Positions 24,021 to 64,000 of a stretch of 64,000 nt of DNA are shown here, one piece after another. The notes beneath the pieces were generated by a model. The model saw nothing but the letters and a program-made list of their open reading frames with translations. It made no database searches and had not been told where the DNA came from. Each line of letters begins with the position of its first letter. Within the stretch, counting starts at the first letter, position 1. Location: assembly GCA_951406725.2 (NCBI GenBank), contig OX597823.1:60388001-60452000 (forward strand). The letters run 5' to 3'. The DNA comes from Octopus vulgaris. Lineage: Eukaryota. A program made the translations under genes and the position numbers.

Positions 24021-24071
<51 letters not shown>

Positions 24072-24551
24072 CAGATATCATTGTAAAAGATCAGACAAAA
24101 AGGATGTGTTTATTAATTGACATGAGTATTCCCTGTGATCTCAATATAGCGGCGAAAGAATATGACAAGTTTAGTAAATATAAAGACCTGCTAATGGAAA
24201 TTGAAAAAATGTGGCATCTCAAGGCGACTACAGTACCAGTGATTGCAGGATCTCTAGGAATGATAAAAAAAGGCAATGAAACCTATTTGAAAATGATTCC
24301 AGGATTACCATCCCTACAGGAAGTGCAAAAAATCGTATTAACTGGAACGGCTCATGTACTGAGAAGAGCACTATCGCTGTGAAAATAACTTCCATCCATG
24401 AATTTATTTATTTATTAATTTTTAAATACATATTTTATCTGTGAATTTGCGCATGTAATCTGGGAATGCATACAATGAGCTTCTCTGCCCTAGATGTATG
24501 GAAAACACTTGGCAAGAAACGGAAGAAAATTTGAAGACAGAAGGAAAAAAC
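24072..24551 (+). mobile_element. R4/Dong-clade LINE 3' fragment in (TAA)n
   Basis: ORF 24104-24382 CLLIDMSIPCD...KYKDLLMEIEKMW...PVIAGSLG; (AAT)n on both sides. Confidence 0.85.
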
Positions 24552-24769: not shown

Positions 24770-25345
24770 TAGATATTATACAACACACACAAATAAAAGA
24801 GAAGATAAGAAAGGAATACTATAGATGAGTTAGGTTAATACTGAAAACAGAACTCAATGCAAAAAACAAGGTAATAGGTATCAACACTTTAGCTGTCCCA
24901 GTTATAAGTTACATCTACAATATTCTTAACTGTACTCTAAATGAACTAATTAAAATATACAAGAAAGCAAGAAAAATAAGGACAAGATTTAGAATGCTCC
25001 ACCCAAAATCTGACATAGAAAGGTTATATATACAATATATCAAAGGCAATAGAGGTCTTATGCAGGTAGAAAACTATTACAAAATAACCACAATAGGATT
25101 ACAGAAATAATTACTTCAAAAGAAAAACTAGTACAAATAACCACAAAACTCGAATAAAACAGAATGCTGTTTTCTGTCTTTAAGGAAGCTGATAAATACA
25201 AAAAGGAAGTCATAGTACCTAACAACTATGAAGATAAAGAAGAAACAACAAAAGCTGTAAAACTAAACTGGAACAGCAATGTATTATAATAAAATGGGGG
25301 CAAGAAAAGCCGCTATGTGGCAAATATTGGATTAAGCTAAACAAA
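24770..25345 (+). pseudogene. R4/Dong-clade RT/thumb remnant
   Basis: IRKEYYR*VRLILKTELNAKNKVIGINTLAVPVISY...LHPKSDIERLY...GNRGLMQVE. Confidence 0.75.
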
Positions 25346-25434
25346 AAAGAGATAACAATTGCAGCGTGGAAGGTGTTTATAAGCCATTTAAGAAACACAA
25401 AAACTGTTAGATTCACTTCAACATTTAAATTTAA

Positions 25435-25485
25435 TTTGTCAAAATATTTTCGTCACTTTGAGACCGAGACCTGTTCACTGACAAA
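25435..25485 (-). ncRNA. Minimal hammerhead ribozyme, G3-C8 core variant
   Basis: Minus strand TTTGTCA|GTGAACA|G|GTCTC...GTGAC|GAAA|ATAT|TT|TGACAAA. Perfect 7-bp stem I, compensated core, palindromic stem III. Confidence 0.7.
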
Positions 25486-25758
25486 ACGCCATGCTGCATC
25501 TCTGCATCTCTGTGATGCATTTCTCGTGAATGGAGGTTCATGAGGCGGTTGTGATCTGTAAACAGTTTTGAGTAAAAACTGGGAAATGACATACGAACAC
25601 ACAGTGAATATGTGCACATTGGATTCATGAAACAAAAGAGAAGAATAAAAACGCAATGGTCTGCATGTCACGTCTGACAACACTATCATGCAGCTTTGCT
25701 GCAATTTCCTTGTTGCAAATATGAACTCAAGACCAATGAACTATTTAGCTAAATTCAC

Positions 25759-31697: not shown

Positions 31698-32117
31698 TGG
31701 AAGTGTTATCATGTACATTGTTTTGTCTTGGTATAAAAGATGGGCTACAGCAAATATTCTGCTCAATACCACAGATTTGCTTGTCAGTTGTTTGACCTTA
31801 ACCAGTTGAGCATGTCCCTTAGTGGCTGACGATATGTGCATCTCTGATCATGAGCAGAAGTAGTGGGGGAGCATCATAGCCATGTGTTGAGAAGGATTCT
31901 TTGGGGTTTGAATAATTCACCTCTGGAAACATGGGTGTTTCGTTCAACGTCCTTAAACAACCCTTATTCAGGGACCTTTTGAGCGGGATGGGTTACTCAA
32001 TCTGAAGAAAATTCTAACTGGGCTCCACCTGCAAGGTCATGTGCTGTTTATCTTGATATGAGATCCGTATATTTTACCCCAGTGTCACTTTGATGGCATG
32101 CTCTGCTCGCTCACTCA
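31696..32117. mobile_element. Non-coding repeat D embedded in (TAA)n
   Basis: Reverse complement of 33736-34078 and 48338-48882. Confidence 0.85.
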
Positions 32118-32141
32118 ATAATAATAATAATAATAATAATA

Positions 32142-32893
32142 ATGATAAAAAATGGAGCAGACCCAAAATGCCGATTCTGCAATGACATGATTGAAACAGT
32201 GGACCACCTAATCTCCGGATGTAAAGTCTTAGCACCAGTGGAGTATAAATTAAGACATGACAGAGTTGGCCAATATCTACACTGGCTAATAAGTCGGCAT
32301 TACAATATCAAAACTGCCAACAAGTGGTATAATCACCACCCTGAAGCTGTAACTGAAGGAGAAAATGTAACCATTCTGTGGGACTTTCCAGAACAAACAG
32401 ACCAAACCATCAAAGCCAATAAACCAGATATTGTTGTGAAAGACAAAAACAATAAAGTTTGCTTATTGATCGACATGAGCATCCCCTGTGATCATAATAT
32501 CTCAGCGAAACAGTTTGACAAGCTCAGAAAATATAAAGACCTACTCATTGAAATTGAGAAAATGTGGCATCTCAAGGCAGTTACAATACCAGTGATCGTA
32601 GGAGCACTAGGAATGATCAAGAAGGGAACCGAAAATTATATGAGAATGATCCCTGGCTTACCATCCCTGCAAGAAGTGCAAAAGATTGTCTTAACTGGTA
32701 CATCACACGTATTGAGAAGAGCATTGTCGCTGTGAGAGCTGTTACTGCCCATGTATTTTAATTTAACCTTGATTGAACGAACTATTGAGTTTGGTTTAAT
32801 GGCCTACCAATGTATACTATAAGTTTCTTTGCCCGAGGAGTCGGGAAGACGCTCGGCAAGAAATGGAAGCAAATTTGAAAGAAGAAGAAAAAA
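32142..32893 (+). mobile_element. R4/Dong-clade LINE 3' fragment (CCHC knuckle, RHD motif, PD...D RLE) in (TAA)n
   Basis: ORF 32142-32735 CRFC...ETVDHLISGC...RHDRVG...ILWDF...NKPDIVV...LIDMSIP...KYKDL; (AAT)n flanks. Confidence 0.9.
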
Positions 32894-49962: not shown

Positions 49963-50118
49963 CAGTTCTATATTTAAGAGATGAGGAATTATGTACATTA
50001 TTTACATTTGACGAATATTCGCTCTCATCTTTATTCGTCTTCAACACAATATTTCGGCTGATATATCCTCCAGCCTTCATCAGGTGTCATGGGGAATTTC
50101 CTGCAAATGTAAATAATG
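49963..50118 (-). mobile_element. 156-bp PLE-like insert containing an HHR and a short inverted segment, with 14-bp TSD
   Basis: TSD TAG(T/C)TGTGGAAGTA at 49949-49962 and 50119-50132; 50104-50120 is the reverse complement of 49994-50010. Confidence 0.7.
50043..50088 (-). ncRNA. Minimal hammerhead ribozyme (extra A after the core)
   Basis: Minus strand GACAC|CTGATGA|A|GGCTG...CAGCC|GAAA|TA|TT|GTGTT. Confidence 0.7.
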
Positions 50119-63113: not shown

Positions 63114-63660
63114 TCATTTATATTTATATGAGTAGAAAGTGTGTTTCTGCCAGTGTTTACATTTGTATGATTTTTCTATGAGTGTGTTTACTAGGGGAAC
63201 CTTAGAGAAAAGAATATGGAAGAGTTCAGAGTTACAAATGTTACAAAATCTCCTGCCCTTATCAAAAGGAAAGGATACAGACAGTATGAACCAATCTAAC
63301 TTGAAAATTATATTGTTGTCTTTAAGACGCCAAACTAATTTACTTAGCCCTGTACTATGTCGTTTTTTACTATCCCTAAATGCTGAGTAGTGGTTTGAAA
63401 TTCTCTTGGATAACTGGGAAGTGGACGCTCCTATATAGAAGAAGACATCGGTACCGGAAGAAATTCTACGCTGGTAAATAGAATTCTTAATCTTAAAATT
63501 ACTACACAAAAATTTAATTCTGTTGGGGTTGTCCTCCGAGATCGAAACGAAGTTTTTATTGTTATGATTGTTGTTACTATTATTATTAGCGCTAACAACT
63601 ACACTATTTCTATTATTATTACTATTATTAATGGTATTACAACCAGTAATACCACCCTTT
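63114..63660 (-). CDS. GIY-YIG endonuclease domain of a PLE (truncated ORF)
   Basis: NSIYQ...FYIGASTSQLSKRISNH...STGLSKLVW...CNICNSE...N...CKH; open frame. The annotated start at 63695 falls inside the inverted repeat. Confidence 0.85.
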
Positions 63661-64000
63661 ATAATGCACCCTTTATTCCTTTGGAATGAAAACATGCTGT
63701 CTTCGAAACATGTGTCGAGAGTAAAGGAATTTTGTTAACATCTTCGTTCAACTCCATTCTTTCATTTATTCATATACAACACAAAAATTTCTACACATGA
63801 ACCCGGAGTTTCTACCCTTGACAGGTCGCTTCAACCGTGTTTCTGACGTGAATTTGCTACCCAGGTTTCGGTTAAACGAATTTTCCATGCTGACGATAAA
63901 CATAGGATAATTCATTCACCTACTTATATATAATATATATATATGTTGTATTTCAGGATGGTCGTTTCTTTCTTGCCAAATAAACACATGCACTATATAT

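Follow-up and report, generated by a model that had tools for sequence, protein, structure and literature searches.

The segment at positions 25435-25485 of the 64-kb stretch of Octopus DNA analysed here (the window) raises the question of whether a hammerhead motif can exist in nature with its 3-8 tertiary core pair inverted, that is, with G3-C8 in place of the canonical C3-G8, and what such a motif would do for the repeat that carries it. To judge by the sequence, the answer to the first part is yes: the inversion is genuine and natural, and it has become fixed in the hammerhead motif carried by a Penelope-like element (PLE). The second part is addressed below through the parent element, its sister lineages and the 5' ends of its copies.

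Architecture of the hammerhead motif

The hammerhead motif was confirmed as real and lies on the minus strand (25485-25435), with the following features:

25435..25485, minus strand: minimal type-I hammerhead with a G3-C8 core pair; taken alone, the motif is predicted to fold with stems I and II
25479..25485, minus strand: stem I, 5' arm
25472..25478, minus strand: core strand G3 U4 G5 A6 A7 C8 A9 (G3 at 25478, C8 at 25473)
25471, minus strand: extra G between A9 and G10.1, found in 213/222 copies and invariant in a 15-row alignment of three lineages
25452..25470, minus strand: stem-loop II, pairing 25470-25466 with 25456-25452 (one U.U)
25442..25451, minus strand: GAAA (25451-25448), AUAU (25447-25444), U16.1 (25443) and U17 (25442), forming the palindromic stem III A15.1-AUAU-U16.1
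between 25442 and 25441, minus strand: predicted cut, placed by hammerhead numbering
25435..25441, minus strand: stem I, 3' arm, of which the commonest variant retains a U.G wobble (27/222 copies)

The original prediction had described a GUGAACA core inverting the C3-G8 pair, a perfect 7-bp stem I, a stem II with four of five pairs, GAAA, a palindromic AUAU and a UU site, and all of them are present: the core reads GUGAACA on the minus strand at 25478-25472, the arms of stem I form 7/7 Watson-Crick pairs with each other (25479-25485 with 25441-25435), stem II has 4/5 pairs with a U.U mismatch attributable to decay of the window copy, and the UU site consists of U16.1 and U17. The extra purine ahead of stem II, likened there to that of a second motif at 50043, is G25471 here and A in the other motif. 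That motif is likewise real, with a C3-G8 core at 50083; it is a canonical minimal C3-G8 hammerhead (window positions 50043-50090, minus strand) and belongs to an unrelated repeat family.

A relaxed descriptor returned two matches within the window, and a stricter one 77 distinct matches in 734 kb of window and loci, 68 of them G3-C8, the loci having been chosen for the G3-C8 family; the stricter descriptor gave no match in three block-shuffled copies. Hammerheads are absent among the 150 of 174 matches listed in the Rfam scan, and the literal CUGANGA core of minimal hammerheads is replaced by GUGAACA in the window copy.

Fixation of the inverted pair

The copy in the window, 147 bp long and decayed, belongs to a large repeat family, termed here lineage A. 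The extent of 25358-25600 first proposed for it has to be corrected to 25356-25502, and the sequencing-run contigs that align here fall away outside about 25354-25503. Its parts are:

25356..25502, minus strand: 147-bp copy of the PLE pseudo-LTR/5' leader, lacking the optional tail of about 60 nt; its match to the family starts with the G ahead of AGATG and stops at the terminal CAATTG
25501..25502, minus strand: likely RNA 5' end, an untemplated and presumably cap-derived G followed by AGATG
25504-25511: 8-nt duplication beside the likely RNA 5' end
25356..25387, minus strand: likely start codon (25387-25385) and first ten ORF codons, assigned by the frame of the tandem copy L165 and by alignment with a sister ORF

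In the L165 tandem copy the same ATG opens a frame that continues into the RT region, and the alignment of this lineage A frame with a sister ORF begins at residue 6.

A pattern leaving positions 3, 7 and 8 and the extra base free yielded at least 7,869 matches to the family in the 2.8-Gb genome, and its reversed control yielded none; that the genome is an octopus one is shown by its 100% match to a protein labelled Octopus vulgaris. The first 100 matches listed comprise 95 G3-C8, three U3-C8, one C3-C8, one G3-G8 and no C3-G8 cores, and G8 occurs in 266 matches (3.4% of copies). In the 16 loci selected by ORF or upstream match (L094-L109), all 25 cores are G3-C8, so that the expectation of G3 and C8 being fixed in the family is borne out. 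No variant at or above 3% is listed at 25469-25486, which spans the core and the 5' arm of stem I, in the contigs of any of four sequencing runs, among them those with other organism labels (organisms B, C and D). In a sample of 222 copies, enriched for G8 copies, the exact core is found in 182, GAAA in 201, and the A-AUAU-U segment followed by U (the stem III palindrome plus U17) in 213; the commonest form of stem II is a perfect 5 bp (108/222), and loop II varies between subfamilies. A subfamily with covarying stem I was looked for among the copies and none was found, and a search for repeats combining C3-G8 with this stem III gave six matches, mostly chance or chimeric, one of which led to a sister lineage (B).

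Two individual loci deserve mention. A lineage A copy at L196:1495-1550 carries C3-G8, with a core and 5' stem II arm that resemble lineage B, and would have arisen either by double mutation or by template switching between families. At L169:5630-6960 there is a tandem array of at least eight G3-C8 pseudo-LTR units with a period of 166-192 bp.

The parent Penelope-like element

The parent of the G3-C8 family is a young PLE, of which the repeats are the pseudo-LTR/5' leader. Read upstream, longer copies pass through about 1 kb of untranslated sequence and then an ORF with a terminal GIY-YIG. In young copies the frame stays open for up to 1025 aa and encodes DKSG, YVDD and a C-x3-C-x2-C linker. 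Pfam recognised the C-terminal GIY-YIG of the 1025-aa frame (1.8e-5) and returned no RT domain match for it. The linked PLE ORF that the original prediction suggested looking for is thus there, as a single ORF combining PLE-type RT motifs with a C-terminal GIY-YIG, which is the arrangement of EN+ PLEs. The hammerhead lies within the pseudo-LTRs, sense to the ORF, and the ATG opening the frame is about 55-56 nt downstream of the motif and its cut site; a second motif follows about 1 kb past the stop, the two motifs being separated by 4.3-5.0 kb in tandem copies. Since the upstream pseudo-LTR continues via the tail into the ORF (L104 and L165), the two 3' ends of the family reach about 30 and 90 nt into the ORF, and 3' pseudo-LTRs are followed by a tail made of ORF-start sequence.

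Further hallmarks of EN+ PLEs are partial tandems, an inverted 5'-truncated partner (32/90 loci), the optional tail (69/127 ends) and insertion at TA targets (a TA run at 59/127 ends). As described in the available text of Craig et al. (2021, PMC8557442), PLEs share all of these, including (TA)n targets, with a tail of 30-40 nt as opposed to about 60 nt in octopus, and the Neptune and Nematis EN+ PLEs combine the RT and C-terminal GIY-YIG with a CX2-5CxxC linker. Such a linker lies ahead of the endonuclease in both lineage A and its sister lineage C and points to the Neptune or Nematis clade; the rows of the protein tree described below include no reference labelled by clade. Non-LTR retrozymes are non-coding tandem repeats without an ORF; the unit here leads a coding element and, although tandem arrays exist (L169), most copies are dispersed. 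Loci L091 and L092, considered as whole tandem elements, proved to be local duplications.

Sister lineages and covariation of the 3-8 pair

Sister lineages with C3-G8 were indeed found. Lineage B, from the same genome, surfaced through the search for G8 copies and has 113 matches; among the first 100 listed, 89 are C3-G8 and none is G3-C8. Lineage C carries a homologous hammerhead with C3-G8 and C at position 9, and shares its ORF-start sequence with lineage B. It is very young, with 1312-aa frames and most of the copies listed 98-99% alike; its hammerhead at L229-L235 (e.g. L229:7292-7347, minus strand) has C9 and a bulged stem I. Aligned from the start of the frame, the ORF products of lineages A and C share 55% identity over 815 aa, and a FastTree of 38 proteins, in which these two stand beside 36 of 120 homologs, places them as sisters (SH 100).

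In a hand-picked 15-row alignment of the three lineages, the 3-8 pair is CG in eight rows and GC in seven, and is never unpaired; pair 4 of stem II also changes on both sides (A-U versus G-C), and G10.1-C11.1 is G-C in 15/15 rows. Pairing is kept in 95% of the cells of this alignment, as against 17-50% in slid controls, with just three stem I pairs counted, the stem I register being shifted in B and C. As two related lineages of the same genome carry C3-G8, the 3-8 pair is, on these alignments, one that has changed on both sides in nature, through what the rows indicate to be a single evolutionary event and not seven. C3-G8 would presumably be the ancestral state, given its prevalence in PLEs. 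Lineages that have diverged by about 45% in protein all retain U4, G5, A6, G12, A13, A14 and G10.1-C11.1, as well as Watson-Crick pairing between positions 3 and 8. The presence of C9 in the very young lineage C suggests nonetheless that the clade tolerates core changes.

The single event and the core drift in lineage C are what neutral drift would predict, with two independent substitutions in a founder copy restoring the pair of a dead motif by chance, but this is highly improbable, as the remaining core and the two stems stay intact and covary, in contrast to a loop II that varies from one subfamily to another, and the inverted state is common to several subfamilies and to runs with other organism labels.

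5' ends of copies and the fate of the cut site

The 5' ends were tallied in 69 copies chosen without regard to hammerhead features. In 30 of them the end lies 55-62 nt ahead of the cut (-62 to -55), five extend further upstream and 26 are scattered from -52 to -7. Starts at the cut itself are not enriched, with 1/69 at 0/+1, in a locus pair picked for that very feature. Truncations at U17 are likewise scarce. Of 102 matches lacking U17, 30 were inspected and 14 proved true truncations, four of 18 rows initially taken as truncated having been reclassed by eye (three point mutants and one duplication); this puts such truncations at roughly 50 copies, or at most about 1% of the family, similar to the 0.8% background per position.

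The upstream boundary has a distinctive composition. Reverse transcriptases can copy the cap as an untemplated G, and a G precedes AGATG in 28/42 copies, whereas long copies carry C or T there; one copy (L151) begins with G and AGATG and continues into the body of the element. We infer that the extra G is a copied cap, and that the RNA is capped and starts about 60 nt before the cut. A reading of the sharp 5' boundary as a 3' splice site is not favoured, as the short copies share one G and no longer exon. Just 5' of AGATG, in L061-L090, sequence resembling a branch point, a pyrimidine tract and an AG coincides with the inferred RNA start, and this splice-site-like upstream sequence has 478 exact matches.

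Folding and likely activity

The predicted fold of the first 110 nt of the young subfamily contains stems I and II, and the window copy with its flanks gives a different predicted fold. Folding energy by itself does not exceed chance (z -0.01; z-scores not significant). Predicted folds also pair G3 with U17, lengthening stem I into the core. This G3.U17 pair is modelled as a competitor related to the 3-17 pairing trap of hammerheads (discussed in PMC3884650), with U17 avoiding a Watson-Crick G3-C17 pair. In the young subfamily copy at L104:5221-5330, stem I is predicted to be longer, the first bases of the RNA pairing with the sequence just before the ATG, and ribozyme folding could in this manner be linked to translation.

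The original prediction held that a compensated swap at positions 3 and 8 can stay active. Published rescue supports it in part: according to the review PMC8495972, G8C lowers the rate 100,000-fold, a loss that C3G makes good in part, and an engineered C3G/G8C swap partly restores a PLE hammerhead, that of the anole Poseidon element PAc (Frangieh et al. 2024, PMC11167929), so that activity is retained only partially in both sources. Activity is abolished when position 3 or position 8 changes alone, which is the likely reason for the double change having been kept. Activity of the G3-C8 motif that is weak, or assisted by protein or by a second copy, is somewhat more probable than not.

Proposed mechanism and alternatives

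A simple cutting role is disfavoured by the 5' ends lying about 60 nt upstream, by the G3.U17 pairing and by C9 in the sister lineage. With somewhat better than even confidence, we postulate that this PLE hammerhead with a natural G3-C8 pair is a weak conditional self-cutter needing a second copy or the element protein. The RNA would start about 60 nt before the cut site and be capped; priming at TA-rich DNA would let the RT begin at either of two sites within the start of the ORF, the optional tail being the stretch that separates them, and reverse transcription would proceed through the uncut hammerhead back to the cap, leaving thousands of 150-250 bp copies, that of the window included. Cutting would be a minor or late event, occurring via the palindromic stem III and dispensable for making short copies. 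This outline resembles that of PAc, for which the available text of PMC11167929 describes cleavage that requires protein, RT start at two sites inside the ORF and uncut RNA as the main template.

The element might instead be hammerhead-shaped and catalytically silent, its fold kept as a protein-binding, packaging or translation signal whose shape the swap preserves. The absence of a peak at the cut site, the competing G3.U17 pair and the C9 of an active sister lineage would all fit, as would the reports that hammerhead mutants have no effect on in vitro insertion (PMC11167929) and that Naiads thrive without canonical hammerheads (PMC8557442). What makes us regard it as rather unlikely is that core residues and a Watson-Crick 3-8 pair persist across the diverged lineages, and that the engineered swap cuts (PMC11167929).

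There is also a stronger form of the active reading, in which the octopus PLE clade holds a working natural G3-C8 hammerhead and has rewired its core twice (G3-C8, and C9 in another lineage) because the element protein folds the ribozyme, which would then act as a protein-gated switch between capped linear RNA, giving short copies, and cut or circular RNA, giving long copies; we advance it only tentatively. That the motif is a fully active dimeric ribozyme, releasing and circularising unit-length RNA as the template for long or tandem copies, along the lines of the model put forward in PMC4209133, seems improbable. Each tandem transcript carries two motifs, stem III is a perfect palindrome and a circle could explain the tail of ORF-start sequence after 3' pseudo-LTRs; however, tandem transcripts or template switching produce the same junction, short copies start at the cap-like end and not at the cut, and PLE minimal hammerheads are slow even as dimers (PMC4209133).

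Relation to known hammerheads

Apart from its 3-8 pair, the motif resembles the minimal hammerheads of metazoan PLEs in the available text of Cervera and de la Peña (2014, PMC4209133): it is type I, with an extra base after A9, G10.1-C11.1, GAAA and a palindromic short stem III, an NUH site and a pseudo-LTR location, and it occurs mostly as single truncated copies. It differs in a stem III insert of 4 nt and in carrying G3-C8, which is the state of none of the 56 representatives given there (53 C3-G8, 3 U3-A8). Natural U3-A8 hammerheads (Perreault et al. 2011, PMC3088659), also reported in PMC4209133, are similar in having the tertiary pair changed on both sides, but U3-A8 is a transition pair and the octopus G3-C8 a purine/pyrimidine inversion requiring two transversions. 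The PAc element (PMC11167929) has the same base pair as a laboratory double mutant of a Poseidon element, as opposed to the natural and fixed pair of octopus; the two elements share a tail of ORF-start sequence lying between two RT start sites, AT-rich targets and, as proposed here for octopus, uncut RNA as the main template. The octopus motif precedes the ATG and belongs to an element that has a Cys linker.

The original prediction regarded a natural G3-C8 form as unusual. In the literature searched, to which the Lunse 2017 survey does not belong, G3-C8 was found in engineered forms and not in natural ones, and the available portions of PMC7229834, PMC10085705 and PMC6765202 add nothing on the 3-8 pair; the claim is therefore upheld within that literature and tempered by the natural occurrence of U3-A8 and by the main survey lying outside it. 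The inverted pair joins the natural states of the tertiary pair between positions 3 and 8 of the hammerhead, the C3-G8 sister lineages of this very genome serving as internal controls, and descriptors that fix CUGANGA overlook a family of this size. Three related natural cores are now at hand (C3-G8/A9, C3-G8/C9 and G3-C8/A9), of which two belong to young elements whose open frames are long, and they provide a ready test set for the role of PLE hammerheads, which is in question because most inserted copies would come from uncut RNA.

Neighbouring features in the window

The PLE copy adjoins a decayed, non-LTR retrotransposon ORF-like fragment (24829-25340, plus strand), and similar fragments lie at 24071-24379 and 32094-32732. 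Pfam gave no confident match for these three fragments, which we take to be R4/Dong-like. An open frame at 63117-63734 on the minus strand matches GIY-YIG weakly (Pfam E 0.047) and is possibly another PLE fragment.
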